This document shows, in pieces, positions 1,580-55,729 of a stretch of DNA of 64,000 nucleotides (position 1 is the first letter of the stretch; each line of letters starts with the position of its first letter). A model generated the notes under the pieces. It was not told where the DNA came from, did not search any database, and was given only the letters and a program-made list of their open reading frames with translations. The DNA is from Massalongia carnosa (taxonomy: Eukaryota): the NCBI GenBank assembly GCA_965645245.1, contig OZ287080.1:186001-250000 (forward strand), read 5' to 3'. Made by a program: the position numbers and the translations under genes.

Positions 1580-1970
1580 ATTACTGAACACGCGATCGAG
1601 CGGGGTCTCCAAAATCAGGAATGACAGGATGTCCGGGGGAGAAATGATTCGAAAAAGTTCTATTCTTAAAGATATGCAGCCTCATTTCTAGCTCAACGCC
1701 ATCGACCTTTTCATCTGTAAGAGCCTTGATCATAGTTAGCTCTTCGTCAGTCGCTAACTTCATGATAATCTGTTGCCCAGTTTCTGTATGCTCCTTGCTG
1801 ATGAATTCCCAGGCCACCTTGAAGAACTTCTCCATCTCCACAACTTGAAACCGCGCATTCTGTCTTGATATAAGGAACATCCACTCTCAGAAGCCAGTTT
1901 CGAGTTTGGTCTGCGGTCGTGATCTAGTGGTAGACTGTGATGGTTTTGTATTAACGCTGTTCTTACTCAT
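1580..1970 (-). pseudogene. 5' fragment of a fungal NFX1-type zinc-finger/AAA helicase (ZNFX1-like) gene
   Basis: FFKVAWEFISKEHTETGQQIIMKLATDEELTMIKAL, then in a shifted frame SLILETPLDRVFS, resembling the N-terminal region of fungal NFX1-type helicases; in-frame stop near 1890, a frameshift, and no helicase domain downstream. Recognised from memory only. Confidence 0.45.
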
Positions 1971-2541
1971 CACAGCTTCGTGCGAGAACTTGCACTACTA
2001 TCATTTAAAGTAAGACAAAGCTATAACTAGAAAGCACGAAAGATTATCACTAGAGGCAATGCTATGGTAAAGCTCTCTTCTAGTAGTGCAAGGCTCTTAC
2101 GGGGTTAGTTAGTGTCTTTGCATTTCAGTGTGTGCTGTCAACAGAGAATTCTTATCTTTTTGTTAACTGTTGATAATTGTTCGTGTCAGCGGCGTGAAAC
2201 ATCTGTTTTCTATTACGGTTTAGCTCGAATCCAGCGGAGTATTCAAGGATTTGATTCATCTTTCTTCTTCATTTAGCACCAGCACTTGTTATTAATAGAC
2301 TTCATCATTTAACTAATCCTCGGGTGACCCAAAAGTTCTTTTCTAACCCCCTCTTTCATGAGATCCTTTCCCGAAACCCCTCCTTATTTAAAATCCTGAA
2401 CGTCGTAATTGAAACATTTCATAGACTCATCCGTGTTTTACGATAAATTTTACACCCAATATAACGGAGACAAGCGTTTCGCGAATGAAGCTTTTCATAA
2501 AAGTTAAAGTTAAATATTATCGCTAAAGGGGGTGAGGACTA

Positions 2542-2812
2542 GTAGGGCTTTAAAAAGCGTAGGGATTGAAAGAGGGTAGGGATTTAAAGAGAGTAGGGAC
2601 TGAAAGATTGTAGACGTTGAAAGAGCGTGAAGACTGAAAGAGAGTAGAGAATGGAAGGGAGTAGGAATTCAAAAAGCATAGGAACTAGAAGAGAGTAGTG
2701 ACTGAAAGGGAGTAGAAACTGGAAGGGAGTAGGGACTGGAAGTGGGTAAGAATTAGACGAGAGTAGGGACTGAAAGGGAGTAGTGATTGAAAAGGAATAT
2801 GGACTAAAAAGC
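2542..2812. repeat. 17-bp degenerate tandem array, about 16 copies (consensus GTAGGGACTGAAAGAGA)
   Basis: Units start at 2542, 2559, 2576 ... 2797 with constant 17-bp period and divergent copies. Confidence 0.9.
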
Positions 2813-3714
2813 CCCAGTCATTTCAAAGCCTTGGGCGTTTTTCTTGGCTAGGGACTTTATTTCCCCAGAGCTTTTATTCTCCCAGGGCTTTCGTTTCCCT
2901 ACTCTTTTCGTTTCCCGAGGGAATGAAAGCCCTAGGAGAATAAAAGTCGTAAGGAGACATAACTCGTGGGACCAAACTCGTAGAATAAAATTCTTAAAAT
3001 ACACACCAAAATTAAAGCAAAAATCTAGATTAATCTAATTGTACTCCACGCCTCTTTAATTACTGATTGCCTTTCCTTTTCACTCGCTTTTTCCAAGTCG
3101 GTTCTTTTCTTCGCCAACCAGCCTACGGATGTCTTGATCAGAAACGTCAACAGTGCTCTTGAAGCAGCTAAGGCGTCAAATCCCATCTATGAAGTATTCC
3201 GGGGGACTTGTGTCGCGATCCGTACGCCCACAAGACTGAATCCGCTTACATGGCCGAACATCAACAGCGCGTGCGAAAGGAGACGAAAGATGTATCTCGC
3301 TGAAGTCGTGGACGCACCTCATACTTCTTTCCATCATCGTCGATAAGGGATGCTCTTCCATTCCGAAAGTGATTTAGCACGATTAGGGTAATTATTAGTA
3401 GCAATAAACACGTCATACGATTTTAACCGAAAAGAGTTTAATGTGCTGTTGGTAGTTGCATTACTAGCTTGTACGCACCCTGGATGAGCAGTGTTTACTA
3501 GCAAAGATTTACACAAGGGGGGACGGTCGGGGGGACTGTCCCTAAGCATCTGGGCTTGACGTATTCAGCCTTATGTGGATATCATTCAGCCCATTCAGCC
3601 GCGCAACAATAACAGCTTGACTGATGCTTTCTGTACCACTCATTTCCAAAGCCAGCCTCTGCACATTCCTACCAGGCTAGTTGTAAAAGTAGAAGAAAGC
3701 TAGGACCTTCTATC

Positions 3715-6700
3715 ATGCCAGATAAAGATTTATGCCTATTATCTCTTGACGGCGGTGGAGTGCGAGGGCTATCGTCACTCGCAATCCTCAAGCGACTGAT
3801 GGAGATCATCAATCCGGATGCGCCGCCGAAGCCATGCGAGTATTTCGACATGATCGGAGGGACAAGTACCGGTGGATTGATTGCTATCATGCTAGGTCGT
3901 CTTGAGATGAATATCGATGAATGTATCGATGCCTATGTCGCATTGTTCGATCAAGTGTTTAAAAAAAAGCCGCATCGTGTCACAATAAACGGACACGTGC
4001 AGGGGAGATTCGACACGGAAGAGCTGGAACGGTCGATTCGAGAAATCGTAAAGCGGAAGGAGAAGGCAGGGGAAAATGCTCTCCTCAAAGGATCAGAGAA
4101 TCAGCAATGCAAGGTGTTAGTGCTTCGGAAGTTGCATTTATACGTATAATTCAAGTGATACTAATGAAAGCTAGATTTGTATGCGCTCTGAGCAAAGAGA
4201 CTGCCGACACAGTCCTTTTCACATCGTATCCTTCTCGAGGATCATCAGATATGTATCATAAAACACGAATTTGGGAGGCAGCTCGAGCCACATCTGCCGC
4301 ATCATCCTTCTTTGATCCAGTTAAAATTGGCCAGTTTGAAGAAGAATTTGTCGATGGGGCTGTGGGGGCTAACAATCCTGTCGCACATCTTTGGAACGAG
4401 GCCAAAAGTGTGTGGTCAGATGAAGCGCTTGAGGGGAACATTAAATGCCTGATATCTATCGGTACCGGTGTTCCATCCTTGGATTCTTATGGCTCAAGCC
4501 TCTTCGAGATTGCAAAAGCGTTGAAAGACATTGCAACAGAGACAGAAAAAACAGCGGAGTCTTTTCATCGAGCGCATTCAGATCTCGACGATGGGAATCG
4601 CTACTTTCGTTTCAATGTTTCTCATGGGCTTGAGAATATTGGACTCGAAGATGCAGCACAGAAGAACAAGATCATGGCCACCACAACCCGCTATGTAGCT
4701 TTGGAAAGCGTGATGAAACAAATGAAGCTGTGTGGAAATAATTTTTCAACACGAGAATGTACGTCAATGTTGGCTTGATAATTCTTGAGTTACTAAATCC
4801 TTGAATAGACACTGGTTCATATAAAGTGCCATTCAGTTTGAAAGGCTTACCCCGTGTACCCAAATTCATAGCTCGTGATCAGGAGATGAATGACCTTAAG
4901 GAAACCCTTTTTCCCAAGCCAACTCGTGAGACTCGCCGGAAGGTGTTCGTTTTGCACGGACTTGGCGGCTCCGGCAAGACTCAGCTAGCAATCGAGTTCG
5001 CTCAAAGATCACAGAAGATTTTTAGTTCTATTTTTTGGCTAAACGGCGATAGCAAGGAAAGTGTACGTCAAAGTCTTGCACAGATTGCTCAGCAATTGCC
5101 CAAAGATCAGATACCGGATTCATGTAGAAAATTCTCTAAAATATCCCCTGAAGAGCTAAATGAAATTATTCGCAATATTCTTATTTGGTTCAATCAACAT
5201 GAAAACAATCAATGGCTTCTCATTTTCGATAATGTCGATCGTGATGATTCTCCTGAGGTAAATGATCCTCAATCATATGATGTGAAAGATTTTTTCCCGG
5301 GAGCCGATCATGGCTCTATTTTAATCACAAGCCGATTACGACAGCTTCGACAACACGGGCAGGACCAGCAACTTGGAAGGATGAGCGATCTACAAGGAGT
5401 AGAAGTATTACGATGCAGGATAGGACGATCAGTTGAAGGTAATGAAATTTAAGCAACAGTCTTAATCCAATTTACTAAGCATTATATAGGCCTTGATAGG
5501 ATCGTCGAGAAAGTGGGTGGTCTCCCACTTGCACTTGCTCATGCAGGCTCCTATATCCACGGAACGACTACAAGTGTGAAAGACTATATTCGATACTATG
5601 AAGAGACTTGGGAGAAGCTTCACAACAACAAAACGACTCGATTAAAAGATTATCCTCGTAGCATTTTATCTACGTACACCATTTCCTACGAATATGTGCA
5701 ACGCAATGACGCGAGCGCTGCAAAATTGCTTAATCTGTTTGCATATCTCGATCATTCAGATTTATGGTATTCTTTATTCACACCTGTACTTGACAGCATT
5801 ATCTCAAAAGAGACATTACCTATCTGGTTTTCATGTATCATGAAGACGGAATTTGATTTTACACAGAAGATTCAAATACTGCTGGATTACTCCTTGATAG
5901 AAACACGATATGAGATCTCATCTTATGCGATTCATCCAATTATACATGACTGGTGTTTTCACTTGAATCTAACCTCTAACGACGAGATAGCTTCTTTAGC
6001 AGTTTCTGTAATCGGTTCCGCATGTCATTCCACTGACAGTTCAGCAAACTGGCTGCATCGAAAACGACTGGCTGGTCATTGTAGTTATGTTCACTTCTGG
6101 ATTGGAAAAAAACCTCAAAACCTCGAAAGGAACATGAGATGGGAACAGGTGTTATATTTTTCGTATTATGATATTGGCTATTTTTCAAACGAACAAGGCA
6201 AGCTGAAAGAGGCCAAAGAGATGTATCTGCGGGCATTGACAGGATACGAAAAGGCCAGAGGTCCTGATCACACATCAACGCTCGATATAGTCAACAATCT
6301 AGGAAATTTGTATAAAAATCAAGGCAAGATGAACGAGGCCGAAGAGATGTATCTGCGGGCATTGACAGGGTTCGAAAAGGCCTGGGGACCTGATCACACA
6401 TCAACGCTCGAAACAGTCAACAATCTAGGGCGTTTGTATGCAGATCATGGCAAGATGAACGAGGCCGAAGAGATGTATCTGCGGGCATTGACAGGGTTCG
6501 AAAAGGCCTGGGGTCCTGATCACACATCAACGCTCGAAACAGTCAACAATCTAGGGGGTTTGTATGCAGATCATGGCAAGATGAACGAGGCCGAAGAGAT
6601 GTATCTGCGGGCATTGACAGGGTTCGAAAAGGCCTGGGGTCCTGATCACACATCAACGCTCCACACAGTCAACAATCTAGGGCGTTTGTATGCAGATCAA

Positions 6701-9334
6701 GGCAAGATGAACGAGGCCGAAGAGATGTATCTGCGGGCATTGACAGGATACGAAAAGGCCTGGGGTCCTGATCACACATCAACGCTCGCCACAATCAACA
6801 ATCTAGGAATTCTGTATAAAAATCAAGGCAAGATGAACGAGGCCGAAGAGATGTATCTGCGGGCATTGACAGGATACGAAAAGGCCTGGGGTTTTGATCA
6901 CACATCAACGCTCCGAATAGTCAACAATCTAGGAAGTCTGTATGCAGATCAAGGCAAAATGAACGAGGCCGAAGAGATGTATCTGCGGGCATTGACAGGG
7001 TTCGAAAAGGCCTGGGGTCCTGATCACACGTCAACGCTCGCCACAGTCAACAATCTAGGAATTCTGTATAAAAATCAAGGCAAGATGAACGAGGCCGAAG
7101 AGATGTATCTGCGGGCATTGACAGGATACGAAAAGGCCTGGGGTCCTGATCACACATCAACGCTCCACACAGTCAACAATCTAGGGCTTTTGTATGCAGA
7201 TCAAGGCAAGATGAACGAGGCCGAAGAGATGTATCTGCGGGCATTGACAGGGTTCGAAAAGGCCTGGGGTCCTGATCACACATCAACGCTCGGAACAGTC
7301 AACAATCTAGGGCTTTTATATGCAGATCAAGGCAAGATGAACGAGGCCGAAGAGATGTATCTGCGGGCATTGACAGGGTTCGAAAAGGCCTGGGGTCCTG
7401 ATCACACGTCAACGCTCGAAACAGTCAACAATCTAGGAATTCTGTATAAAAATCAAGGCAAGATGAACGAGGCCGAAGAGATGTATCTGCGGGCATTGAC
7501 AGGATACGAAAAGGCCTGGGGTCCTGATCACACATCAACGCTCGGAACAGTCAACAATCTAGGGCTTTTGTATGCAGATCAAGGCAAGATGAACGAGGCC
7601 GAAGAGATGTATCTGCGGGCATTGACAGGGTTCGAAAAGGCCTGGGGTCCTGATCACACATCAACGCTCGGAACAGTCAACAATCTAGGGAGTTTGTATG
7701 CAGATCATGGCAAGATGAACGAGGCCGAAGAGATGTATCTGCGGGCATTGACAGGGTTCGAAAAGGCCTGGGGTCCTGATCACACGTCAACGCTCGAAAC
7801 AGTCAACAATCTAGGGCGTTTGTATGCAGATCATGGCAAGATGAACGAGGCCGAAGAGATGTATCTGCGGGCATTAACAGGGTTCGAAAAGGCCTGGGGT
7901 CCTGATCACACATCAACGCTCCACACAGTCAACAATCTAGGGCTTTTGTATGCAGATCAAGGCAAGATGAACGAGGCTGAAGAGATGTATCTGCGGGCAT
8001 TGACAGGATACGAAAAGGCCTGGGGTCCTGATCACACATCAACGCTCGCCACAGTCAACAATCTAGGAATTCTGTATAAAAATCAAGGCAAGATGAACGA
8101 GGCCGAAGAGATGTATCTGCGGGCATTGACAGGATACGAAAAGGCCTGGGGTCCTGATCACACATCAACGCTTGGAACAGTCAACAATCTAGGGCTTTTG
8201 TATGCAGATCAAGGCAAGATGAACGAGGCCGAAGAGATGTATCTGCGGGCATTGACAGGGTTCGAAAAGGCCTGGGGTCCTGATCACACGTCAACGCTCG
8301 AAACAGTCAACAATCTAGGGCGTTTGTATGCAGATCAAGGCAAGATGAACGAGGCCGAAGAGATGTATCTGCGGGCATTGACAGGGTTCGAAAAGGCCTG
8401 GGGTCCTGATCACACGTCAACGCTCGAAACAGTCAACAATCTAGGGCGTTTGTATGCAGATCATGGCAAGATGAACGAGGCCGAAGAGATGTATCTGCGG
8501 GCATTGACAGGGTTCGAAAAGGCCTGGGGTCCTGATCACACATCAACGCTCCACACAGTCAACAATCTAGGGCTTTTGTATGCAGATCAAGGCAAGATGA
8601 ACGAGGCCGAAGAGATGTATCTGCGGGCATTGACAGGATACGAAAAGGCCTGGGGTCCTGATCACACATCAACGCTCGCCACAGTCAACAATCTAGGAAT
8701 TCTGTATAAAAATCAAGGCAAGATGAACGAGGCCGAAGAGATGTATCTGCGGGCATTGACAGGGTTCGAAAAGGCCTGTGGTCCTGATCACACGTCAACG
8801 CTCGAAACAGTCAACAATCTAGGGCGTTTGTATGCAGATCATGGCAAGATGAACGAGGCCGAAGAGATGTATCTGCGGGCATTGACAGGGTTCGAAAAGG
8901 CCTGGGGTCCTGATCACAAATCAACGCTCAACACAGTCAACAATTTAGGAAGTCTGTATAGAAATCAAGGCAAGATGAATGAGGCCGAACAGATGTGTCT
9001 GCGGGCATTGACAGGATTCGAAAAGGCCTGGGGTCCTGATCACACATCAACGCTCGCCACAGTCAACAGTCTAGGAATTCTGTATAAAAATCAAGGCAAG
9101 ATGAACGAGGCCGAAGAGATGTATCTGCGGGCATTGACAGGGTTCAAAAAGGCCTGGGGTCCTGATCACACGTCAACGCTCGAAACAGTCAACAATCTAG
9201 GGCGTTTGTATGCAGATCAAGGCAAGATGAACGAGGCCGAAGAGATGTATCTGCGGGGCTCAAGCGGCTTACCTGTGCCAGGTATGACAATTCTAGGCAG
9301 GACAAGGCCTGATGACATATTCAACGTCGAATGA
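3715..9334 (+). CDS. Fungal NLR: patatin-like phospholipase - NB-ARC - TPR array; exons 3715-4115, 4175-4758, 4809-5438, 5490-9334
   Basis: Patatin motifs LSLDGGGVRG, GTSTG, DGA; NB-ARC Walker A GLGGSGKT, Walker B WLLIFDNVD, GSILITSR, GGLPLAL; three GT-AG introns (4116-4174, 4759-4808, 5439-5489) with branch-like CTAA sites join the ORFs in frame (CKV/FVCA, TRE/YTGSYKVPF, VEG/LDRIVEKVGG). Confidence 0.95.
6194..9256 (+). repeat. Coding TPR tandem array: 24 full 126-bp (42-aa) units plus a partial 25th
   Basis: Units from 6194 to 9218 (3024 bp = 24 x 126); consensus QGKMNEAEEMYLRALTG(F/Y)EKAWGPDHTSTLxTVNNLGxLY(AD/KN). Confidence 0.97.
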
Positions 9335-10206: not shown

Positions 10207-12480
10207 TTATGGCCGCTCGTAAGGTGGTGACCTCAAGAGGAATTTATGTAACCAATCTGCACGCAAAGGCCGAATGACAGTCAAGTGGGTGTCTTGTGAA
10301 CCAAATCCGCATGGTTCTGCAAGTGCATTGTGCTTGTCAAAACATCTTGACACCTTGGATGAAGGCATGCGATCGGATGACCGTCTTGGTGATGAGGAAG
10401 GTGTTTTACAATGGAAGTGCTTTTTCAGATCGTAGCGGCTGTGGAAAGACTTCAGACGTGTCTCGGTGGGTAGCGCTACACAGCCGAGGCAAAAGATACA
10501 TTGAGTGGGTTCGCATTCAATCGGGATGGAGTCTGAAAGAGAGGCCGGATCGAGGACAGATGGTGGTGTCAGATGCCGTTCCTTGATGACCGACGCGGAA
10601 AGTTTTGAACGACGTGGACGCTTGCCTTCCTGCAAGCGACAAAGGGCTGTCAAAGCATTGATCTCTTCCACCCGCCGCTTGCACTCTTCCTCTGAGGATG
10701 ACGTCGCGAAGGTGAGGAGGTATCGATGACCCGGACACGCTCCTCGAAGACGTAATCCTCTGCCTTCGCCGTCTCCAGTTCTTCCGACGGCAGTCCTTTC
10801 AGCTTTCGTTGAATGTCGATCACCGGCTGCTCCCTCTTATAGCTCGCTTTGACCTCTTGTAAAAGAGCCTCCTCTGCCACCGTTTTATGTTGCGATGAGC
10901 TTGATACGCCTTTTGGTACTTATCGTATACTGATGTCCCCTTCATGCTCGCGATGGGTCCATGATTGTCTTTGATGAACTGGAACATTTTCTTTTGCCTC
11001 CGGCGAAGGAGTCTCACCTCTGGGTGACGATCGACCTGGGCTTTTTGGGCGTCATTGAGCTTCCGAGGCCGTCGTCGATCAATCGTACGACTCATTCCAC
11101 TGGCGAGCCGCATCAACGCATTTTACGGCTTCAAACCACGATAGGCGGCCCCGGTATCACTTGTGATATACCTCGAGAGATAGATTTTTAAGAACACGGT
11201 GGAGTTATGATGTTGCAAAATCAGATTCCGTTGCGATTCGCTGATGAAGCCTGTGCAAGGGTCAGCGAAAAGCTCAAAAGAAGATTGACAGAGGTCGTGT
11301 TACACACTTGCTGTTGTCGAGAGCTTCGCTATTGCCGCGTCGAAAGATGTATGAACCGGTGGGAAGCTTCATGCCGGTGACGCTTCCAAGGGTTATCATC
11401 CGTGAGCGAAGAGTACTATCAGGCAGAGCTTTGTCATCCGAAATTCGAACTCCGTTCACGGTGAATTCGGATCGGCGGAAGAGGAGAACATGTAGCATCG
11501 TTTCCTTAAGGGGAAACGGCAGCTGTTTCTGTCCCGGGGGGATCCGGAGACGGAATAATTGTTCGGCAGAAATCAATTCGGGAGCGGCGAAGGCCTGAAC
11601 GTTAAAGATCAAAGTGAGTAGGTTCAGACGAGGACAAAGCAGCAGCCATGGTTCGTCAGGCTCGTCAGGAATCCTGAACTCATTTCTATGATACTTGTCA
11701 GTCGTTCAGCGAAACTGTCCGTCTCGACGAAGAAAGCACAAAAGGGCAACATGGACGTTTCTCTATCGCCTAATAACCCTTCGTATTCTTGAATGCGATT
11801 TCAATCAACCGTCGAGGAAGCTCCCCTCCTTCGAGATCCGGAAGCAAGGTGATCTGAACATCTTTGTAGCACACACCCAAGAGGGCAGCAGGACGGTTGT
11901 CTGTGATTCCGGCTAGCTGCATGATCAAGGCTAGTTGTACACGGTGCCGCTCGTGATCAAAGACGATCTCGACGAAGTCGTCCTCGGCCCGCATGATGAG
12001 CTTCTTCTTCTTCTTCTCAGTCCTTAACCCATGCTTTAGAGCGAGCCGTTGTCTCGCCTAGTACTGGTTAATCAATAGAGGCGTAGCGGGGCTCTCGTAC
12101 CCCGTGCATCTGGCTTTTGATAAGCGGGTCGATCTCTAGACAGCCAGTCTCTTTCTTTCGCACTAGACAAAAAATATTCCAGAATGTTTGCAGGGTACGA
12201 GTACTAGCCGCACTCAGCCGATCTTTTCGAATGGAGAGTAGCCAGTCGAAGAAGACGTAGAGGATGTTGATAGAGATCTCCTTGAGAGTCATGACGGGGT
12301 TCTTCCTAGTGAATTCGCAATATCTGTCAGCCTCGATCAGATTTCGCCAGTCCACGATAGTCGTAGTAGCATCTCCTTACCGATACCAAAGGTTCTTAAT
12401 CCAGCTCGATAGATCCTCGCTGCTATCCTTGTAAACTCGTTCAGGGAAAATTAGAGTCGACGAGCGTGGATGATAAGTGA
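10207..12480 (-). pseudogene. DUF3435 tyrosine recombinase (Starship captain-like), multi-exon, frameshifted
   Basis: WIKNLWYR/YCEF (intron 12324-12380), FFDWLL, FDHERHRVQLALIMQLAGITDNRPAALL, NTKGY, YIFRRGNSEALDNS, QRNLILQHHNSTVFLKIYLSRYIT, GMSRTIDRRRPRKL, C-terminal CEPTQCIFCLG zinc-finger-like region; frameshifts and small deletions; start codon not located. Confidence 0.85.
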
Positions 12481-13369
12481 TCGACGTGAAGGAGGGACGG
12501 CGAAAATAGAAGTGGGAGAATAAGAGGGTTGGAAAGGCGAAGATGAAGGGTAGAGGGACACGAAGAGAAATGTCGTCAGAGACGATGGGAACGGAGGGGA
12601 AGCTGAGCAGAACAGCCGATCCTGGAGGTCGGGGGGCACGATGAAATAAATACCAGGTGTCGGACAAGGACCATGAGGACCAGCTGAGTGATGATGCTTG
12701 AGGCATGACACGCTCGACGTGGTGAGGTGATGCGCAAGAGCGACCGGGGACGGGCAGGGCGGCGGGAAAAATCGAGCAATATAGAAGCTGAAACAAATAA
12801 TGTGAAGAGAGAAGCTGCAATTTATGATTTGAAAGTGGAGGACTGAGCGCCTTGAGGTCTACTTTCGCGTTAGCAAGTGCGTTCTCGACGTGCGAACTAG
12901 CTAACTTATACATATGCGTTTGAGAAGAGAGTTTTGATATGTGGCTTTTAGATGACAGACAATCTTTAATTATATTATCTTATAGTATTCCTCACAGTCA
13001 TGAAGATGAGAGATGAACCACTGCATTTCATTTCAGGCTTGTTTTCTCTGCCCACAAAAAGGTCAGTAATGTTTTGATCTCGAAAATATAGGCACACATT
13101 AACTCACTTCTCAATGACTCTTAGAGGCCATCTCTTCTATGTTTGCTAATAAATAACACACCAGACTGTAACTAAATAACAAGGGTATTTACATTGATAT
13201 ATGACCTCGGTATAATCACACATGTTAAGATGAAAGGCAGCAGAAACGAGATTAAAGAATCTAACAACCTGGCGAGAGATGGAAGTGCTTCTGAAGGAGA
13301 GAGAGTTTAAATAGACTTTGCATATACGGCGAAGAAAGCCTCTTTCTATATGCTTTCCGATCTCGTTCT

Positions 13370-41785: not shown

Positions 41786-41825
41786 GTAGCTCCCCTTTCA
41801 AGAGCTGAGCTCCTGCGAAGCAGTT

Positions 41826-44800: not shown

Positions 44801-46217
44801 TCGACAGGTTCTCATCAAGGTAGCGTCGGAGTTCTTCGATTTCGGTTCGACTCATGCCATAAAGAGCTTGATTCGGGATTGGAAAGCCTTCTTTTAGCTT
44901 TATGGCATGGTCGTAGGGTCGGTGTTCGGGCAGGACGTCCGATTCTTTTTTGGAGAAGACATCCAGAAAGTCGTGATACTGTTTGGGTAGAAGGGGGGCT
45001 GGGTCGACGTTCTTTCGCTCACGATAAGCGTTCAGTTCTTCGGCGGTCACTGATGATTGCAGTGTCAAGGGTTGAGGTTCGGGTTCGGTCACTGAACATA
45101 ACTGTGTCAGAGCCTGGTTCATACGGAACAGGGCTAAGTGATATTTCTTTTCACTAGGGCTGGACCGGGGGTTGGGTTGGTAGGTTGGTTTCGAGTGTGC
45201 CCAGTCAGTCTCTTGACGAAGGCGAGATTCGGGTTTGGGTTCAGGCTTAGGTTCAGGTTGAGTCAGGCCGAGAAAGTGATCGATTTCCTTCAAGGAGAGA
45301 GCAAACATCTCGTGACTCTTTTTTCGTCCGAGATAGTTGAAGTTGAGGGCGCCGATTTCACAGACGTCCAAAACAGGAGGATTGCGATTCTGCTGGGCAG
45401 CATGTCGCTGAGTGGAGGTGCGATACGAAGAGGGACTTCGATATCGGATTTTCGGTGAGTCGCCCTGTTCAATCGCTTTTTCGATACGACTGATGTCCTG
45501 ATTTTCGAGAGAAGTTATCTTACTATCGCGCGGCGTGGTTTTATCGGACAGGACAGGTTTTTCGGACAGGATTTGACTATTGGACGAGTAGTTTTCCGAT
45601 TCCCATACTTCCTGACTTTCCGCAGGAGATAGGATTTTCTCGCCCGTGTAGGCCTTCACCTTGACTGGATGAGGGCTACAATGAGCCAGGCAGAAAGAGG
45701 AAGACAGGGAGAGAGAGTTGGACTCGAAATCAGCGAGAGCTTGATTTCGTCGCAACCACGGGTGTCCCAGGACGATGGGGTAGGTTTTCAGTCCTGTTAT
45801 GAAAAGGAATAATCTTTCTACATGTCCGTTTAAGTCCATGATTACCTCGGCCACATGAGTGATATTTCCAGTCAGAGCCGGCTGACCGTCGAAGCCTTCA
45901 AGGCGTCGGGCGTATTTGAGGGGATGAAGGGGGATTTGGTGAGTTTGCGCAAACTTCTTGTCAATGAATGCATAGCCAGATGCACCACAATCAATCAGAT
46001 TGAGAGCTTGAATTCGAGATCTACCTAAACGTAAGATACATGATACCACTAGGTGGCTATCTCGAAACGCTTCTTCGGTTTCAAACAGCTCCAGAGCGGA
46101 GGCTGCGGAAAAACGAGTGTTTGATTGAAGGGGGGGAGAAAACGAGTTGGCTAACAGACAAGAAGAAATTAAAATAGGGCTCTGCGCGCGACGATGCGCA
46201 GAGTCTAGACGTTTCCC
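41826..46217 (-). pseudogene. Gypsy pol (PR-RT-RH-IN-chromodomain), one premature stop at 42183-42185
   Basis: LIDCGASG, AYLDDILIYS, ETDASDY, HPG...C..C zinc region, FHPETDGQTER; after the stop the same frame reads IHPVFHVNLL...WYVNSILNSK...YFVNWEGHTPTWEP. Confidence 0.93.
46180..46217 (-). promoter_or_regulatory. -1 programmed ribosomal frameshift signal at the gag/pol junction
   Basis: Slippery G GGA AAC just before the gag stop, 7-nt spacer, 8-bp stem CTCTGCGC/GCGCAGAG; the -1 frame is open into pol. Confidence 0.8.
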
Positions 46218-47398
46218 GAGTCGTCAGTCTCGGGAGTGAGGGTCGAGACGACTTCCATGTTGCGAAGGCGTTTGGTAGGCTTATTTGGACAGTCGGAGGC
46301 CGACCCGAGGTGTTGCAATTTGCAATAGAAGCACAGGTTCCAATTCTCGCAGATCTTCCTTACTCCCTCGGTTTTCAACGACTGACCTTTGACAGCCGCC
46401 ATGGCCTGACTTAGGTCCATGGGGTCTCCAGCTGGGGGGAAGGCGGGGGTTGGGATCAATGGGGTGACCGTGCCCGTGACGACAGTGCGGGGGAAAGGGG
46501 CAGCAGGAAGGTTGGTGCCGTTTCTTCGATTGGCGGGAGCTGATGTGGCCGGAGTCGTGGCCTTGGGTGCCAGATGACGGATCTGACGGATTTTCCGGTC
46601 CGTGCTTAACCACATTGCGACGTGCTCGTCGAAGGTGATTGGCTCCAGATTGGTGCCGGGGACTCGCTAGTGGACGGCCGCGGTTTGAACGGAGTAGTTG
46701 ATGTTTGCCTTCATGGCATCACTCAACGAAGCGTCTTCCATTCTGGATCGGTCTTTTTTCTGAGAGAAGAGAGTGTTGTACTCTTCGAAACTCAGAGAGC
46801 CCTGCTTGAGGGTTTCTCGAAGGTACTTACGGGCATCCTCTTGTTCGAAGGGGTTGCCGCAGGCTAGGCGAAGAGCAGAACGCCATTCGGAGAAGGTGGT
46901 GAGTCTACAAATGCCATCCACTCGATACGCATTCATAAGGTTGTGAGCTCGTTTCCCGATGGTGAGCCGATTCTCCGCGTATGCAATCTTGGAGGCATCG
47001 GTGGAGTATCGATCATGATTAACGTGCATCCGTTGAATGAGGCTCTGTTCCCAGGAGTCCAACTTGGCTTCATCTCCATCGTACTCGGAGATGTCGGGAA
47101 GTTTTTCGGAACGAAGATCGGTTTTGGACTCGGAATTCCGGGTCAAAAGGAGCTGCAGGAGGGCAGCTATCTGAGGGTCCATTGCCGGAACGGACGAGGG
47201 AGACGAGGTTGATGCTGGAGTGGGTATAGGGGGGTCGGGAGCTGGGGCGGCCTGCAACCGGGCCACCTTGTCTTGAAGTCGTCGTATTTCCGCGACGAAT
47301 GCTTCAGGATTGGTTTGGAACTGGTTTGGAAACAACTTCACGTTCTCGTCGATGAGAGGATTTTGGGGGACGGTCATCTCTTCTGAAGACGAAGACAT
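46205..47398 (-). pseudogene. Gypsy gag with one in-frame TAG at 46667
   Basis: Two ORFs in the same frame; GDPMDLS and NLCFYCKLQHLGSASDCP knuckle. Confidence 0.88.
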
Positions 47399-47468
47399 GA
47401 TGGTGGAATATGAGGGGGGACAGGGGCTAGTGCTATGAAAGGCACCTTTCGATGTAGGTCCGACGTAA

Positions 47469-47916
47469 TGTCAAGGACTGGGCAGGGGATTGAACTAATG
47501 TTCCTAGGAATTGGATTGAGTGGTCAAGCTGTCTTTATTAATAAGGCTATAGCTAGGTGATGGATTGCTATACAAGACGTCGGACAAGGAGTCAACTATC
47601 TAAGTAAATTGTCCTTCCATTTATATTTGTCTCGAACCCCTTTGCATGAAGATTCGATCAGTGTTCATCTCCCCCTATTAGGAGACGTACGGCACGAAGG
47701 TTTGACGAGGTGTTTGACGATAAAAGGTGGAGATGAGGTTCTCCTGTCGTTGGTACGCTTTGATGGTGATGGTACAGCTTTGACCTGAAGCCGTTGAGAG
47801 GGGTCTAAACTCGATTTAGTAAATGAGATTCTGACTAAGCTGAATAGAGGAACGGGAGCTTAGTCAGATTCATCTGCGGGATTGATTCTGGATCGGGTTG
47901 GTTCGATTTCATAACA
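47469..47916 (-). repeat. Gypsy 5' LTR
   Basis: Differs from the other LTR by about 6 substitutions and a 9-bp indel (manual count). Confidence 0.95.
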
Positions 47917-48490
47917 GTGATTGATTGAACAGCCAAGTGACAAAATTGAGGGAGAATTGGTTTTAGAGATACTGTTAGAACTCGATGTCAGTGGCTATGT
48001 TCAAAGTCACGAGGTATGTTTGAAGCGGGGTAGAACGCGGAATATATAAACTTACAACGCGAATTATTACAGTAAGCATCAAAACCGATTGACGTTGAGC
48101 CGACATGACCACCGAAGACGTCACCTATCGCATTCGCGTGAGAATTGCTCACAGTGACGATGAGGATCACTTTGTTAACATGAATGAGTTCTCCGACGGC
48201 TCCGAGGAATTACAGAAGCAATGGGTCAAAAGAATTACTGACCACATCTGGGGCTCTCAGGGCAACAGCTCCTTGGGGTTCTGTCGGACCGTTCTTATTG
48301 ATCTGGAAAATGATGTTCTCCTTGTCTATCTAAACTGGAAATTCTAGCTAGCTATATAGACCATTTCGCCACATTCTTTCATAATCTAGATATCTTCCAG
48401 CCACTTCTATTTACTAATAAATCATTAGTGATCCGGAACCCATGCGAGGTACAATGCTTTGAAATCATTGAGTATTAGAAATCAGATATA

Positions 48491-50104
48491 CCGTATAATT
48501 TCCCATATAAGCCTCGGGGCGTATACCTAAGATGACTGAATCGAGGTGATTTTGAACGGGGGTTTATAGCCAAAAGGGGTTAATAGCCAAATCATTTTTA
48601 TAGTCAAATAGGGGCTTATAACAACGGGTGAAAAAAAAAAAATTTCCCGGCACCCCCCAATACATTTTCTCTTTTTTTGATCATTGCCCTTCCTATACAT
48701 CTCAATATGGCCCCCCCACATATATCTCCTAAAAAGACTCCTACCGGTCCTCGTACAAAATCAGTTGTTTCCAGAAGCTTATGGGCATCAAGTATCAAAA
48801 AATCAGGCTATTCACAGTCATCTCAGACATCTTTCGGAGACAATACTCAGATAACTGAACAGTTTCGTTTGATACGTGAATCGGCTGATGACGTGTCTAA
48901 TAGAAATTCGGATGATGAAATCACTCGTCGAAGAAAATCCTACACACGAGAGAATAAGTTAGCTGCTATCAACTATGCTACAACAACTTGGAAGACTCAA
49001 AAAGACGGAACTCTTAAGCTTATTAGTAAATACGAAGCTGCAAAAAATCTAGGAATTGATCTAGCTATGCTTCGTAGATGGTTAAAAACAAGCTCCGTAA
49101 TCGAAAACATGAGTACTGGAATCAGAAAAAACAGACCTCTCAATACTGGCTGTCAGGAACCGGAGTTGGAAAGACAGCTGATTGAGCTGTTTAAAGAGAA
49201 AGGAGAAGCTGGAATGAAGGTTGATAAACGATGGATTATACGTCAGGTAAAACATATATATGCCGTATTGTATCCACATCGAATTATTCGAAAAGCGGGG
49301 AAAAGAGATGAGTATCTAGGCTTCAAATTCTCTGTTGGGTGGTTTGATAACTTCAGGAATCGAGTCGGTATTTCTCCACGAGCAGTTACCAAAAAATCAC
49401 AGATAGTTTCCGAGAATTTGCGGTCTACTATTGAAAGTTGGCTGCAATTCAATCAACGTAATTCTCAGCCCTTAATAGGTCAATTTCCACAGCACGGAGG
49501 GGGAAGATATCGTCTTTGTGATATTGGTAACATGGATCAAACCCCAATTGCGTACGAATTTCTGGACGGACATACCTACGATTTCAAGGGGGCTAAAACG
49601 ATATGGGCCAAGACGCATAGATCGGGATGGGATAAGAGACAAGCTACACTAATGGTATACGTCTCTGCTGATGGGATAAATCGTTGCAAACCGCTTCTTA
49701 TCTTCAGGGGAAAGGACGGAATTAAAAACAGTCGTATAAAGAAGGAGATAAGTCAGTATCATACAGGGGTGTCGATCCAATGGAATGATACTGCATGGAG
49801 CAATACCACGGTCATGATTCGATGGCTAAAGTATGTTTTAAGAGATGAAATAGGGTCGAATATTGAGGAAAACGATGGCGGGGAAGATAATAGCGGCGAC
49901 AGCGAGATGGATGAAGAATAATAGGAAGGTACTTCAAATTCAGTGAGAATTACTAGGAAAATTAAGTACCTCTATATCTTCTTAAGAATTAGGAGCTTAT
50001 AGCCCAATACCCCCCCTCGGTCTGAAAATTCAATTTTAGAACACAAGCTTATAGCTGAAAAGGGGTTAATAGTTAAGTCCAGGCTTATATGGGAAATTAT
50101 ACGG
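48491..50104 (+). mobile_element. pogo-like DNA transposon with internally deleted transposase (ORF 48677-49921)
   Basis: 24-bp TIRs CCGTATAATTTCCCATATAAGCCT, TA on both sides; FKFSVGWFDNFRNR, IGNMDQTP, KPLLIFRG; the DDE domain breaks off after WLKYV. Confidence 0.93.
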
Positions 50105-50134
50105 TATGGCATAGAAAGAAATAGCATCTGAAAG

Positions 50135-51070
50135 ATCGAGGCCTCGGTTATTAGTCCGAAATCACATACTTTTCCTTCAACAGGATCTTACTTCGGGAAT
50201 TGGCTTGAACCACGGTCTATTAATATTGACAGGTTCATTAGGCCATGGGACTTTATTCTTGCCTCCGATGGCTCGGTTGAGTCTCTTCCCGTTTCACAGA
50301 TTGAAGGAGAGAGTAGTGGAATGTATTCAGCTCATTATCGCATCCCGCCCACCAGTATTGACTCCCTGGAGGGGCAGGAACAAATTAACCGCCAGGAACG
50401 CTTCGCTTTCGCGACTCTACTCTACGAAATCGGTTCTGGCAAGCCGTTTGAATGGCTTAACGATGAGGAAGTGCAGCAGCGTTACAGCAATGGCGAGTTC
50501 CCAAACGATGTCAGAATCCTCCCACCTCATCTCTTCATTGCCATCTTGTCATTTTGGAGCCCCGAGTTTGCCGATATAAGTGCGTTACATCCTTTTATCA
50601 ATCTTCAGCAATTTCTAACAGCAGCAGTCAACCGTCCTCACTCTATTTTCCACCGAATCACTACAGGAGCCAGTTCTTATATCAAAGCACACCCATATCT
50701 CTTCGCTTTCCAACTCACCGGCGTTCTATTCTCGACCGCCGCTGCAGTTACTCTGCTAATTCTTGGCGCCGTGGGCTTTAGTGCGCTGGGTCTAGTCGCT
50801 GGCAGCGCAGCAGTAGGATGGCAGGCTTCTCTCGGTCTCGTTGAAGCGGGAAGCCTTTTTGCGTAGTGCCAGAGCGCGGCTATGGGTGGAGCTGCCGTCA
50901 ACGCAATTATTGCTACAGGTGCAGCGGGTGGAGGAGTTACCGCGCTCGCGACAGCGGCGGCAGCAGGACAGAGTAGGACCTTAGATGTAGACGGGCTTAT
51001 GAAATTGTTTAGGAAGGTCTATAGGACGGGAAATCTTAGAGACGTCCGAGGGCACAGCTCGACAGAATAG
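50135..51070 (+). pseudogene. Kinase-like (probable pseudokinase) domain fused to an IFI6/IFI27-like Gly/Ala-rich membrane domain
   Basis: One frame: FIRPWDFILASDGSV...ERFAFATLLYEIGSGKPFEWLNDEEVQQRYSNGEFPNDV then LGAVGFSALGLVAGSAAVGWQASLGLVEAGSLFA*CQSAAMGGAA; TAG at 50864 where Trp is expected; likely in-frame intron from 50580. Confidence 0.7.
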
Positions 51071-52668
51071 ATAAAGAAATGATAACTGCGAGCTTTGTGA
51101 AGAGGCTCTTTGAGTTTGATGGTGAAGTATGAGGGGAAATACGTGGGAGCAGGTGGCAGTCTTGAGGCGTAGTTTCATTCGCTCGCCCTCCGTTGTCTGC
51201 TTAAGATTTGGATTGAATGTCTACGAAGGATGTTGAATCACTCCGGGCGAGTGAAGCGGTGAACTACAGTCATGGAACACAAATCCATTAGTCGTGGAGA
51301 TAATGTTGTTTCTTGGGTCGAGATAATCGCTCGTACTTTGCGCCTTGTGCTACAGCGAGGTCGCCCCTCATGTACACAAGCCTGGCTGTCAACGAGGCGG
51401 CGAATCACGCTTCAAACAGCAACTTTTGGATGCATCGTGTTCTTGTGAGCGCATTGTTGAAGTGAATTGTTGATCACTATAGTGCATGTACGAATATTTG
51501 AAAGGAATAGTTTTGATTGATTCTATCGTGGGTGCTTTTTGAGCACCCACCACACTTGTCCGTTAGGCTAATGTTTAGCGTAACATCAACATTAAACGCC
51601 CCTGAACGACGCCTCACTTACCGAACGCGGAATATTATCGTCGCCTCGTTGTGATCAAACTTGTGGGCTTAATGCACTGCAGATGCTTCTATCACAGTGG
51701 TCGGACTCTTCCTCGACAGCACCTAAGTCGTTGTGGAATCGCTCCCTGTATATGGCTTATGCACGTTTGTGGCTCAATCTGGCGTTAAGTTCAACTTTCG
51801 CTTGCTCTTCGTGTAATAATATTTGTTATCAAGCCAGTGCTCGGAAATCCTGCTTTGCCGTGCCCATATGAAGACATTATCGGTGGCCCAGTTGGTCTTT
51901 GCAGTTCGCAGACAAATGGCGCAACCATGGTTTCGGCCTTCCCCTTGTCCACCCCTCTTTGATTGAGCCAGAAACCGCCTTGGTGTGGCAAACAATGATG
52001 TGTCCACATATGATTGATCCAACTATCGTCTCATCCAATCTACCTCATCTCAGCTGTTCCAACCTTCCAAAATCGGATATCGGATTTGAAGACCTGAGAA
52101 CGACCAGGCAGCGAGAGACTTGGAGGACTGTACGAATCATTAGACGTTGAGGCGACTACTAGGTTGGTGCACATTTCCTTTCTCGCAGACTAAGGTCCTA
52201 TGACTTTTCCGGTATGTGTACCCAGCTGTATAGTCTATGTCATACCTCACAACACATCAAGCGTGTAGGCTCGTCTGCGACTGACTCTTAAGAACGGCTA
52301 TGCGATATTCAAGATAATAAGCAATTGCCTTTCGGTTCAAGCCGCGGGCGCTTTGTGAACATGATTGGGCTCTCGATCCCTTCCGAAGCAAGCTTTGGCT
52401 TGCCTTGGTGTCACCTTCTAAATAGTAAGATCATAATGTCGCTGCCTGACGGAATTTCGCCTTTGTTGCACAGACTTCCCTAACACAGCCATTAAACATC
52501 CCTCAGAGACTTTTCGAGTGGCTCTCTAAGTCTTGTCGTTCTAATAGGTCTTTTATTCAGCTAAGAAAACATGCACTATCTTAAGAACCCAGTCCGCATT
52601 CCACTGACTACTTCATCATCTTTCGACTATCTAGACAAGATTCGCTCCGAGTACAAATAATTAAAGCT

Positions 52669-53922
52669 ATGCAAATAGCACTGATTGTGTTGACACTACT
52701 ATCTCCAGCTGCACAGCTTAATATTTGGTAGTCAGTTGCATTCTCAATTTGTGTGGCATCATGCTCGCGTATTCCTCAATCTTCAGGTTTCAGGAAGCTG
52801 GCCAGTTTGGGCATACTCTGGCAACATTATGCTTCTAAACCCCATTTTGCAAGCAAAGAACTGCGGGATAGGCTATTTCGTAACGCTTAGCATTATCAAA
52901 CAGCATACTCTTTATACGACTGTCATCCAGCTAGCATCGCCAACGAGTTGCGCAGCAGCCACAACAACCAAACAACAGGTTAATGTAATTACGACTCAAA
53001 CTCCAACGTCTGTCACCAGCCAGACTTCATTCTCTAGTAATAGCGGTAACACCTCGGCTACAACGATTGGAATTATTGTAGGATGTATCATTTTTGGAGT
53101 ACTATTGCTGCTTGCCCTTTGCTGGTCCAGAAGGCTGGAGGAAAAGCGATCCTACCGTCTACCACGACTGATAGCGGGACCGGAAGGACCACAAGGACAA
53201 CAGGGAGAACCAGGTATCCGGGGACAACCAGGTCCGCAAGGGGCCCGAGGCCATCCTGGACCACCAGGGGCAGCTGGACCCGCTGGACCAGCGGGGATGC
53301 CAGGAGCTCGTGGTAATCCTGGAACACCCGGCCCGCCAGGAGATCAAGGATATCGAGGACCGCTCGGGCCGCCTGGGCATCCAGGATCGGCTGGAGCAAC
53401 AGGACCCCCAGGACCACCAGGACCATCAGGATCACACGGACAACACGGATCACCAGGAAGACCTGGACCACCAGGATCACACGGATCACACGGACTACCA
53501 GGACCATCAGGACCACCAGGATCACCGGGACCACCAGGACCACACGGACCATACGCACCACCAGGACCACCAGGACCACCAGGTCCACCAGGGCCACCAG
53601 GACCACACGGACCATACGGACCACCAGGACCACCAGGACCACCAGGATCACACGGACTACAAGGACCGCGTGGGACTCCTAGAGCAGATGAGTCGCGAGG
53701 AACGCGTGGTCCACATGGTTTACAAGGCGTGCAAGGCGTGCAAGGAATACAAGGAGTGCAAGGAGTGCAAGGCGTGCAAGGCGTGCAAGGCGTGCAAGGC
53801 GTGCAAGGCGTGCAAGGCGTGCAAAGCATGCAAGGCGTGCAAGGCGTGTAGGGGCTATAGGAAGCCCAGGGCTTGCGAGGATGTCGAGAATTTCCCTTTA
53901 CCGCTTTTCTTAGTGAATAGAG
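52669..53922 (+). pseudogene. Single-pass membrane protein with C-terminal collagen-like Gly-X-Y tail
   Basis: Signal-like [17 protein letters not shown] at 52669, one base out of frame with ORF 52736-53851; Ser/Thr-rich stretch; [22 protein letters not shown]; roughly 70 Gly-X-Y triplets; the pattern continues past two TAG codons. Confidence 0.7.
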
Positions 53923-54640
53923 CTATACCTTATATTTCGATTTAATGATATCAGGCTCGTCTTACTGCTCGATGCATCAGCTTAGATTAGCCGTACCTAT
54001 CATCGAGAGTGTAACTAATGAAAATGGTTTGTCATATAGAGCAGCGAATTTAAACGTCTCGACTTTTTCTGCATACCTATTGAGCCTTGCGATCGCTATC
54101 GAAAAATATTCCCCATCCATCATCATCGGACACAACTGATGAAGGACGAGCGAGGACGACAGGTCAGTCTAATCCTTGAGCAAAAATTGCCATGTCAAGG
54201 AGCTTCAATGGAGCAAGGGTTAGTAGGCTCGGGATCGACTCAGGATAAGGAATTCATCGTGAAGTTGATTTCTAATCGAGAGAAATATTTTTCGCTCTTA
54301 GGAAGGGATTCTCAGAGCTATCTTAATCTCACATAATCGTTTCATTAGTCTACATTTCTTTCGTAGGTCTTTCTGATCTTCATCAATGAGTCACGCAACA
54401 GATATGCATAGACAATTTGTCAAAGTCTTCTCGATCGCGTCAATCTCTTCTTGAAATAGTGAGGACGCTATCTTGTTTAAATAAAGAAGACTAGTTAGTA
54501 CACATGAAGTCTTCTAGTTATGTTGATGATACTCAATTGAGACTAATGTGATGCCGGCAAACGACAATGGGTTTTCAGCGCGGCAACTTAGTACATACTA
54601 TTCAGCAAGCGCTTCTTATCCTTACTGAACTGATGGTTTC

Positions 54641-54852
54641 TGATGAATAATTGATTCACGTGTAGTGTAACAGCGTGATTGTCATTGAAGGTAATTTTTT
54701 ATATGAACTATTTGTCTGTTTATATAGCAGTCATTAAAGCAGTCATACTGTAGGCCTCCCATAACTGTTTTAAGTCCTATATAGGTGCCTGGCAGGCACC
54801 TCCCGCGACTAATGATGAATGCCTATATTGATAATAGCCTCATCATCTAATA
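54641..54852. mobile_element. Degenerate solo LTR related to 62949-63272
   Basis: Shared TGATTGTCATTGAAGGTAATT, TTTATATAGCAGTCA, TGCCTGGCAGGCACC, ATGCCTATATT; ends approximate. Confidence 0.7.
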
Positions 54853-55267
54853 TCCTCTGTCCTTGAAACCTGAACGACATTTCTTTCCCTTAGTACCAGT
54901 ATCCCAAATGACGTCTATGACGAATCTTCAAGAGGTGAACTTCGTTGCTTGTAAGTCTTTATACTGATCCTGCAGAGAGCATATAGCTGTAAGGCTTAAG
55001 GGAAAAGCTTGAAACTCTCTGGATAAGCCTAAACTCCTGGTATTGAAGGGGAACATGGCAACCATTGCTATTCGTGATTTTAATCGCGTTTGAGAAATTG
55101 CTCGCCTAATAATGGCCGATTGCAAAAGGGCTAGTAGGTCCAGCGCAAGCACGCCGGTACAGAAAATAGACGGGGGCTGGCGAGAGACCCTGTAGGCTGT
55201 CAGATATCAAATCCCTTATTAGACGTGAATACTTTACTTACCTTATCAGTCAAGCTGTCTCGGTCAA

Positions 55268-55729
55268 CTATTGACTGCAATGACCATGCTTGCATCCCTC
55301 ACATAAATTACTCTGATGAGGGCTTTTACTGTGACCTGAATTAATCGGCCTATCCATCTCTATTCCACACCACTTCTTGAGTCGGTATGCCACTCTTTGC
55401 GCATATGAATCATCTAAACGCGGTTTACTGAGGCTATTACACCCCTGACAGCGTTGATTGTATACCCTTGCATTGTATTCTGCTCTAGGATACATCCGGA
55501 TGGTGATAGCGATTCTCTTGCTCGACCATCCGCTAGAACCACATGCGCGGTTGCGGCATACGAATCGCCCCATAATATTAGTATCGTACTCTTTGATGCA
55601 ACTTTCGGTGTCATCAGTTTCATGAAAGCTGAAGTATAAATTATCTTCCTCTAGTAAGCGTGAAACATCGTCGTGCAAAGCCGAGTACAATGACCAACTT
55701 TGATCCGATTTTGATTTTCTAGACGGCAT
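55268..55729 (-). CDS. zf-3CxxC (RTP-like) zinc-binding domain protein, 153 aa, intact
   Basis: GRFVCRNRAC...WSS, ARVYNQRCQGC, PHQSNLCEGCKHGHC. Confidence 0.9.
   Translation of the reverse strand: MPSRKSKSDQSWSLYSALHDDVSRLLEEDNLYFSFHETDDTESCIKEYDTNIMGRFVCRNRACGSSGWSSKRIAITIRMYPRAEYNARVYNQRCQGCNSLSKPRLDDSYAQRVAYRLKKWCGIEMDRPINSGHSKSPHQSNLCEGCKHGHCSQ

Follow-up and report, generated by a model that had tools for sequence, protein, structure and literature searches.

Mostly decaying genes of immune-type families in a probable transposon-invaded accessory region of Massalongia carnosa

In bacteria, immune-type genes are clustered near mobile elements in defence islands, and in mammals the interferon-stimulated genes include IFI6/IFI27, RTP4 and ZNFX1. 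Among fungi, OLD-ZAO, an antiviral RNA-editing module of Neurospora crassa, was reportedly described by Honda, Yokoyama and Suzuki in 2025, and the fungal NLR repertoire, with its effector-NOD-repeat architecture and highly similar repeats, is said to have been surveyed by Dyrka et al. in 2014. The present analysis concerns a 64-kb stretch of DNA from Massalongia carnosa (contig OZ287080.1, positions 186,001 to 250,000), which is called the window as a whole and in which an initial annotation had seen a candidate fungal defence island. The genes in question are a patatin NLR, an OTT_1508-like deaminase, a kinase-like/Ifi-6-16 fusion gene, a zf-3CxxC gene and two helicase fragments, one ZNFX1-like and one RecQ-like (Table 1).

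OTT_1508 deaminases have been proposed as defence enzymes (PMC3239186), and the OTT_1508/OLD deaminases of Neurospora edit UAG stops in adjacent genes within an antiviral response, as described in a commentary (PMC12754623). In Starships, DUF3435 captains are accompanied by auxiliary genes of the patatin-like and NLR types (Gluck-Thaler et al. 2022, PMC9156397), and elements of this type, such as Tangerine, occur in lichen fungi (PMC13486527). No published claim of a fungal defence island of the kind considered here was found in literature searches.

Condition of the immune-type genes

The window is probably a gene-poor, transposon-invaded accessory stretch that holds lineage-variable families of immune type, most of them decaying. 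The named relatives of its proteins point to a lichen-forming ascomycete as the probable host. Of the six named genes, only the NLR gene and the zf-3CxxC gene are intact; the remaining four (OTT_1508, Ifi-6-16, ZNFX1-like and RecQ-like) are broken or are fragments. For the gene survey, 167 stop-to-stop open reading frames (ORFs) of at least 80 aa were translated and all were scanned against Pfam. Transposon proteins made up over half of the Pfam matches in the window, and no housekeeping or metabolic family was found among the 167 ORFs, in agreement with the initial annotation. Transposons of the Gypsy, Copia, pogo, Tc1, MULE and Crypton/DUF3435 families occupy at least 36.6 kb (57%) of the window; this figure is a lower bound from summed element intervals, which were taken from Pfam matches and repeat boundaries and, for two elements, by eye. 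Every family named in the initial annotation was confirmed at or near the place given for it. In the window haplotype, these four are inactive copies or remnants, the lesions being a frameshift, nonsense codons, an inserted transposon or a truncation.

The assignment of the OTT_1508-like deaminase was supported by a PF14441 score well above the cutoff; the gene copy itself is broken. Its alignment with relatives showed that the catalytic motif HAE...PACFLC is kept, in accordance with the pattern HxE...CxxC. In tblastn searches, the relatives P0122, P0123 and P0124 aligned in frames +3, +2 and +1. The first frame change fits an intron, whereas at the second (40147-40156, +2/+1) the alignments overlap and leave no room for one, and this overlap indicates two extra bases, that is, a 2-nt frameshift near 40148. 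Contigs of two sequencing runs from different studies (X2 record 1 and X4 record 9) are identical to the window over this site, and the frameshift is therefore not an assembly slip. In-frame stop codons are found at 40765-40767, where the relatives have Gln, and at 40876-40878.

The first 57 codons of the Ifi-6-16 gene were located at 48106-48275, outside the interval of 50.1-51.1 kb given in the initial annotation. The coding region is split by an insertion of 1955 bp (48276-50230), which is nested: a pogo element with perfect 27-nt terminal inverted repeats (TIRs; 48488-48514 and 50081-50107) lies inside a repeat of about 340 bp. In contigs of runs X2 and X5, which lack the insertion, position 48275 is followed in frame by 50231 (or 50236), and the two coding parts are also contiguous in the relative L001. 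An ordinary intron was considered for the 1955-bp gap and rejected, because the flanking parts are contiguous in the contigs of two runs and in L001. The repeat of about 340 bp around the pogo element was present at several times the single-copy depth. Potential splice sites, GT at 48278 and AG at 50232, were also noted; their use would remove exactly 1955 nt in frame, a situation resembling that of introners, and the insertion could in principle be spliced out in this manner.

The second lesion of the gene is a TAG codon at 50864-50866, which replaces a conserved Trp codon. Among the 98 motif-bearing relatives (of 120 listed), the site is Trp in 81, Leu in nine, Phe in six, Val in one and Ile in one. 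The 22 metagenome loci that contain the motif have TGG (17 loci), a Leu codon (four) or a Phe codon (one) at this position and never TAG, which was likewise absent from three more loci examined by alignment; none of the 119 other protein models of relatives ends there. The score against PF06140 was 18.9 bits for the open frame (cutoff, 29.1) and rose to 30.5 bits when TAG was read as X, and the relatives score 30-41 bits.

The Ifi-6-16 half of the proposed kinase-like/IFI6-IFI27 fusion thus stands at 30.5 bits with TAG read as X, and the kinase-like identity of the N-terminal half is weakly supported. No kinase domain was matched by Pfam in the fusion protein. A profile built from 41 sequences of the family matched almost only protein-kinase C-lobes in the PDB, all weakly, with the MLKL pseudokinase as the best match (E 0.017); the language-model features in the Atlas were nearest to clusters of short ascomycete kinases (0.93), and the AlphaFold (AF2) model showed a confident N-terminal domain (pLDDT about 90). 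In total, 146 relatives were found in at least four ascomycete classes. The members P0002-P0121 are about 300-340 aa long and consist of a kinase C-lobe-like domain without an N-lobe and an Ifi-6-16 membrane domain. The analysis defines a widespread ascomycete family of kinase-like/Ifi-6-16 fusions.

The ZNFX1-like call, the weakest of the initial annotation, was borne out through a longer relative. The ORF alone had no match in Pfam, in the Atlas or among PDB sequences (the last searched by phmmer), and a search among longer proteins found five relatives with 62-73% identity. One of these, P0273, is a full-length protein of 1927 aa with AAA_11 and AAA_12 helicase domains and an RZ-type zinc finger; an NF-X1-type finger was not matched in P0273. 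Codon 29 of the window copy is an in-frame stop and its reading frame changes near 1620-1657; neither the helicase nor the zinc-finger part of the gene is found in the window. The RecQ-like assignment was also upheld, both by the DEAD match and by the best solved relatives in the PDB, which are WRN RecQ helicases (E 3e-6), and the piece is a fragment within repeat DNA. The summed contig depth of the bin 37000-37650 was 123,234, compared with about 800 for single-copy genes in X2 (about 150-fold), so that the RecQ-like piece is apparently part of a high-copy repeat. The DNA of high depth (37000-39600) holds both this fragment and the adjoining Tc1 element.

The two intact genes differ in character. 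The NLR gene has Patatin (E 1e-15), NB-ARC (E 7.5e-7) and TPR_12 (E 2e-258) domains in Pfam, as had been annotated, and thus combines an effector domain, NB-ARC and a repeat array in one intact frame, the architecture of fungal NLRs. Its four exons (3715-4115, 4175-4758, 4809-5438 and 5490-9334) encode a product of 1819 aa with a single terminal stop, and the introns (4116-4174, 4759-4808 and 5439-5489) are all of the GT..AG type and 50-59 nt long. A stop codon at 5450-5452 was considered as the mark of a pseudogene and was rejected, since it falls within a canonical intron. The GGGxRG, GxSxG, DGA and Walker A motifs are kept, and the TPR array comprises 25 units of 126 nt with 89-96% nucleotide identity. 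This is the one clearly functional-looking gene of the window. By analogy with known fungal NLRs, the TPR array would act as a ligand sensor, ligand sensing would lead to NB-ARC oligomerisation, and the patatin phospholipase domain would then damage membranes and cause cell death; 25 nearly identical TPR units would allow rapid reshuffling of the repeats. The stretch 2748-2850 recurs at 9507-9609 with 87% identity as a direct repeat that brackets the gene, and the 17-nt minisatellite is also found on the far side of the gene (9489-9609 region). This shared bracket suggests a cassette origin of the NLR gene, by arrival or by duplication.

The zf-3CxxC call was confirmed by an ATG-to-stop frame of 153 codons with a PF13695 score of 81.7 bits. 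Its product has 512 relatives, and the 120 listed are 62-99% identical and mostly full length; the named relatives with 63-73% identity belong to Aspergillus, Talaromyces, Botrytis, Monilinia, Cordyceps, Xylaria and Phaeosphaeriaceae. Over its full length, the protein shows 63-84% identity across ascomycete classes. The pattern points to a conserved core gene and not to accessory cargo, and such conservation across classes would reflect purifying selection on a core function, unlike that expected of arms-race genes. The gene is a highly conserved orthologue across Pezizomycotina that simply lies in the window.

Haplotypes, neighbourhoods and alternative explanations

Contigs of several sequencing runs were placed on the region 37.0-56.5 kb with a likeness threshold of 85%. 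The full-length Gypsy element is an insertion that separates the deaminase and Ifi-6-16 genes, and its empty site was recovered in contigs of two runs as a joint from 41343 to 47919 with a 5-bp overlap. An empty-site joint for the pogo element (48488 to 50105) was also present in contigs. A less decayed version of the locus thus exists, which at the 85% threshold may be either a haplotype or a paralogue. The window copy is the more decayed version, and its insertions are recent and polymorphic.

The surroundings of the Ifi-6-16 family were compared in 44 metagenome loci with genes for relatives of the fusion (402 kb in total; 21 loci of at least 9 kb), with this family as the sole anchor and without a background control. 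Fifteen window proteins, including zf-3CxxC, the deaminase, patatin, NB-ARC, the ZNFX1 N-terminus, the RecQ piece and DUF3435, served as tblastn queries and gave no match in the 44 loci at 1e-4. Profile hidden Markov models (HMMs) of zf-3CxxC (120 relatives) and OTT_1508 (150 relatives) matched the window only and none of the 44 loci, while the Ifi HMM used as a positive control matched 44 sources. Window ORFs of at least 60 aa shared with the loci were limited to transposon proteins and the Ifi gene. Pfam found no NB-ARC, NACHT, OTT_1508 or 3CxxC domain in the 251 ORFs of at least 130 aa in the 21 long loci. The neighbours in the long loci were mostly housekeeping genes (NAA35, RPC82, deoxyhypusine synthase, USP7, NOP2, ATG11, CENP-H and Csf1), and the 44 loci represent about 11 distinct neighbourhoods when grouped by shared neighbour sets.

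The clustering in the window is best explained by variable, dispensable gene families that accumulate and erode in transposon-rich compartments; in the left 13 kb, a degraded element of the Starship type with the patatin/NLR passengers usual for such elements may have contributed. Co-selection as a defence island is less likely. Several observations weigh against the interpretation as an eroding accessory region. Six families with known or proposed immune links inside 55 kb form a striking list. Contigs of X2 and X5 lack both the Gypsy element and the 1955-bp insertion, contigs of the same runs have C instead of T at 40765 (CAA for Gln, not TAA), and decay in the window copy is no proof that the locus is dead in the population. 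Point mutations in the window are not assignable to repeat-induced point mutation (RIP), since no RIP signal was detected. The neighbourhood counts cover the surroundings of the Ifi-6-16 family only. Moreover, as the single exception among the neighbourhoods, in the lineage of L024 (10001-17232), L025 and L028 the Ifi-6-16 gene stands tail-to-tail with a full-length ZNFX1-like helicase gene, whose product is 34% identical to P0273 residues 67-1919 and has zf-CCCH, AAA_11 and AAA_12 domains and an RZ-like end, so that some recurrent association may exist. An edge-cut ankyrin-repeat ORF (L044) and small WD40 ORFs (L018 and L021) could be C-terminal parts of NLRs overlooked in the domain count. 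At least two of the window families have immune roles in fungi, namely the NLRs and, according to the commentary (PMC12754623), the OTT_1508/OLD deaminases. A functional fungal defence island, in which homologues of the interferon-stimulated genes (ZNFX1, IFI6/IFI27 and RTP-like zf-3CxxC), the NLR and the deaminase are co-selected in a mobile region as in bacteria, would account for the presence of all the named families in a region rich in mobile elements, for the antiviral role demonstrated for OTT_1508 deaminases in Neurospora according to the same commentary and for the pairing of a ZNFX1-like helicase with an Ifi-6-16 gene in another lineage. It is nevertheless unlikely, because four of the six members are broken or fragmentary in the window haplotype, the zf-3CxxC gene is conserved as a slowly evolving orthologue, the RecQ piece belongs to repeat DNA, and OTT_1508, zf-3CxxC and NB-ARC/NACHT were not found in the 402 kb around the 44 Ifi-6-16 relatives. 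The association with mobile elements that marks bacterial defence islands is present in the window, but several intact, clustered defence genes are not. The initial proposal is thus supported for the families and their mobile context and not supported for a working or conserved island, with two intact genes of six and, in the 44 loci, linkage to a ZNFX1-like helicase in a single lineage.

Two narrower explanations concern parts of the window. The deaminase and its original downstream Ifi-6-16 neighbour might form an editing pair like OLD-ZAO of Neurospora, in which UAG is converted to UIG at the Trp codon. Without the Gypsy element (joint 41343 to 47919), the two genes lie in the same orientation with about 0.37 kb between them, the TAG occupies a position that is Trp in 81 of 98 motif-bearing relatives and TGG in 17 of 22 loci, and OLD enzymes correct UAG stops in adjacent genes, according to the commentary (PMC12754623). 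Such a pair is nonetheless highly improbable here: the TAG is unique to the window (none of 22 loci and none of 119 other protein models), the neighbouring deaminase copy is frameshifted and has two stops, the presumed target carries the 1955-bp exon insertion, and the 44 Ifi-6-16 relatives all lack an OTT_1508 gene in their vicinity. The A to be edited is base-paired in the predicted fold and not in a hairpin loop, and this fold is no better than those of shuffled sequences (z +0.89). A change from Trp to TAG is also not unusual, as it represents about one quarter of the transition nonsense routes by a rough estimate. By the same evidence, there is very little to recommend the further idea that the TAG keeps a harmful kinase-like/Ifi-6-16 membrane protein, a candidate cell-death effector, switched off until infection. 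Somewhat less remote, although still doubtful, is the possibility that the left part of about 13 kb belongs, as its inner end, to a degraded Starship giant transposon that runs from the DUF3435 recombinase (10.2-13 kb) leftward past the window start, with the patatin NLR and the ZNFX1-like remnant as cargo and the deaminase, Ifi-6-16 and zf-3CxxC genes as ordinary chromosomal neighbours. The DUF3435 gene lies on the minus strand directly to the right of the patatin NLR, which at 3715-9334 provides an auxiliary gene of the Starship type in the form of a patatin-NLR fusion, and PLP and NLR genes are described as auxiliary companions of DUF3435 captains (PMC9156397, PMC13486527). A DUF3723 fragment and a pogo element adjoin the Ifi-6-16/ZNFX1-like pair in L024, which gives that locus a Starship-like flavour as well. 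On the other side, the DUF3435 profile positions 16-391 are spread across four ORFs and frames in Pfam, and the gene is probably degraded, because the junction near 10856/10889 is too tight for an intron and at least this break in the frame is not spliceable. The element ends, target-site repeats and empty site are undefined, and the presumed element would leave the window at its start; DUF3435 is also found in Crypton elements, and two other Crypton-like recombinases occur in the window. The Pfam scan of the window ORFs found neither DUF3723 nor ferric reductase.

Other features of the window

The coordinates of all features are collected in Table 1. The Gypsy element is flanked by long terminal repeats at 41347-41787 and 47469-47918 that are 97-99% identical by repeat search. 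The ORF upstream of the second Crypton-type recombinase (28296..30473) is homologous to 14642-14953, in the Crypton-like remnant. Contig depth in X2 was about 1e5 over transposons, compared with about 800 over unique genes. Tandem repeats of 138 nt with 96-97% identity were observed at 63649-64000, where they overlap the start of the Copia-like reverse-transcriptase frame. RIP indices gave no signature in any 1-kb bin of the window except the minisatellite bin, and RIP was therefore rejected as the source of the stop codons.

The initial annotation had also listed two single-pass membrane genes. The ORF at 52585-53851 has a signal-like start, a Ser/Thr-rich stretch and one transmembrane segment. 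Contig depth marks it as single-copy, and whether it is coding is uncertain because all frames are open over the repeat. A short ORF at 34505-34858, preceded by a stop-interrupted frame of about 1 kb (33458-34366), has one clear transmembrane segment and no family match and is possibly the second of these genes.

Table 1. Positions of genes, gene remnants and mobile elements in the window
Feature	Position	Strand	Basis or details
ZNFX1-like superfamily 1 (SF1) helicase gene, N-terminal remnant	1589..1973	-	codons 1-131 of ~1900, ~70% identity to P0273 residues 1-131
17-nt minisatellite and ~100-nt stretch (2748-2850)	2525..2850	.	repeat search
Patatin-NB-ARC-TPR NLR gene, intact	3715..9334	+	Pfam, splice sites, motifs
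DUF3435 tyrosine-recombinase gene (Starship-captain or Crypton type)	10210..12979	-	Pfam, domain 10653-12057
Crypton-like remnant	14642..18800	-	NDC10_II and GCR1_C Pfam domains (15641-17601)
Copia LTR retrotransposon coding region	19043..22533	+	gag, integrase, RVT_2 (Pfam); broken, several frames
Element with 89-nt inverted repeats (23058-23146 / 27530-27618)	23058..27618	.	repeat search
Tc1-type DDE_3 transposase inside 23058-27618 element	25200-26288	-	Pfam
MULE/FAR1 transposase inside 23058-27618 element	26368-27393	-	Pfam
Second Crypton-type tyrosine recombinase	28296..30473	-	by eye, HSFRKGAA...LGRWSS motif, frame 28370-29768; no Pfam match
pogo/Fot-type DDE_1 transposase	30574..31905	-	Pfam
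pogo-type transposase remnant	35424..36736	-	HTH_ABP1_N, HTH_Tnp_Tc5, DDE_1 (35939-36736), Pfam
RecQ-family helicase N-terminal fragment, ~70-90 aa	37050..37457	-	Pfam DEAD E 2.6e-7
Tc1/mariner DDE_3 transposase, open 389-aa frame	38095..39261	-	Pfam
OTT_1508 (OLD-like) deaminase pseudogene	39504..41163	+	PF14441, E 1e-18, 67.4 bits vs cutoff 27
Gypsy LTR retrotransposon, full length	41344..47918	-	pol frame 1346 aa, Pfam domains 41829-47470
Kinase-like/Ifi-6-16 family gene	48106..51070	+	coding 48106-48275 and 50231-51070
pogo nested in Ifi-6-16 exon insertion	DDE_1 48632-49918		Pfam
Single-pass membrane ORF	52585..53851	+	~210 aa collagen-like G-X-Y repeats, 9-nt (GVQ)n tandem array at end
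zf-3CxxC (PF13695) gene, intact single exon, 153 aa	55271..55729	-	Zn_ribbon_3CxxC E 6e-23, 81.7 bits vs cutoff 23
MULE transposon, ~200-nt terminal inverted repeats	56478..60401	.	TIRs 56478-56677 / 60199-60401; transposase 57488-59973 (-)
Second MULE-type transposase ORF, 509 aa	60567..62096	+	Pfam
Gypsy-like fragment and Copia-type reverse-transcriptase start	62496..64000	-	by eye; no Pfam match at E<=0.01

Comparison with known systems

If fungi had islands of the bacterial type, gene neighbourhood could reveal new eukaryotic immune genes, and fungal homologues of interferon-stimulated genes could be linked to immunity; the window provides no such evidence. The named families do exist in lichen-type ascomycetes, and a suggestive list of domains in a transposon-rich region can consist mostly of dead genes. 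As in bacterial defence islands, immune-type genes lie near mobile elements in the window, but most of its members are inactive, an operon-like organisation is lacking, and conserved co-localisation was not seen in the one family examined (Ifi-6-16).

The likeness to the mammalian interferon-stimulated genes lies in the Ifi-6-16 and Zn_ribbon_3CxxC domains and in the SF1 helicase with an RZ finger, the last seen in the full-length relative. In contrast to the mammalian genes, the fungal zf-3CxxC gene evolves slowly, Ifi-6-16 is fused to a kinase-like C-lobe domain, and the ZNFX1-like gene is reduced to 131 codons.

With OLD-ZAO, the window shares a deaminase of the OTT_1508 type with HxE...CxxC and an adjacent gene with TAG in place of a Trp codon. 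It differs in that the neighbour is an Ifi-6-16 membrane protein and not a zinc-finger transcription factor (ZAO), the deaminase copy is a pseudogene, and the TAG lacks both conservation and a hairpin-loop context. If editing did take place, the principle of OLD-ZAO, where the target is a transcription factor, would apply to a direct effector as well, and antiviral defence would gain a link to a fungal relative of an interferon-stimulated gene. The improbable lead left by the comparison is a deaminase neighbour with TAG at a Trp codon, with the Ifi-6-16/ZNFX1-like pairing in the L024 lineage as a weaker companion.

The resemblance to Starships consists of a DUF3435 tyrosine recombinase beside a patatin-bearing NLR in a transposon-rich setting, with relatives in lichen-forming fungi. 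Unlike in Starships, the frame of the window recombinase is broken, the element ends and the empty site are undefined, patatin and NLR are fused in a single gene, and most of the listed immune-type genes are found beyond the recombinase. With its N-terminal patatin, NB-ARC and highly similar TPR units, the NLR agrees with those attributed to the survey of Dyrka et al., shows nothing unusual beside them and is a typical member of the fungal repertoire.

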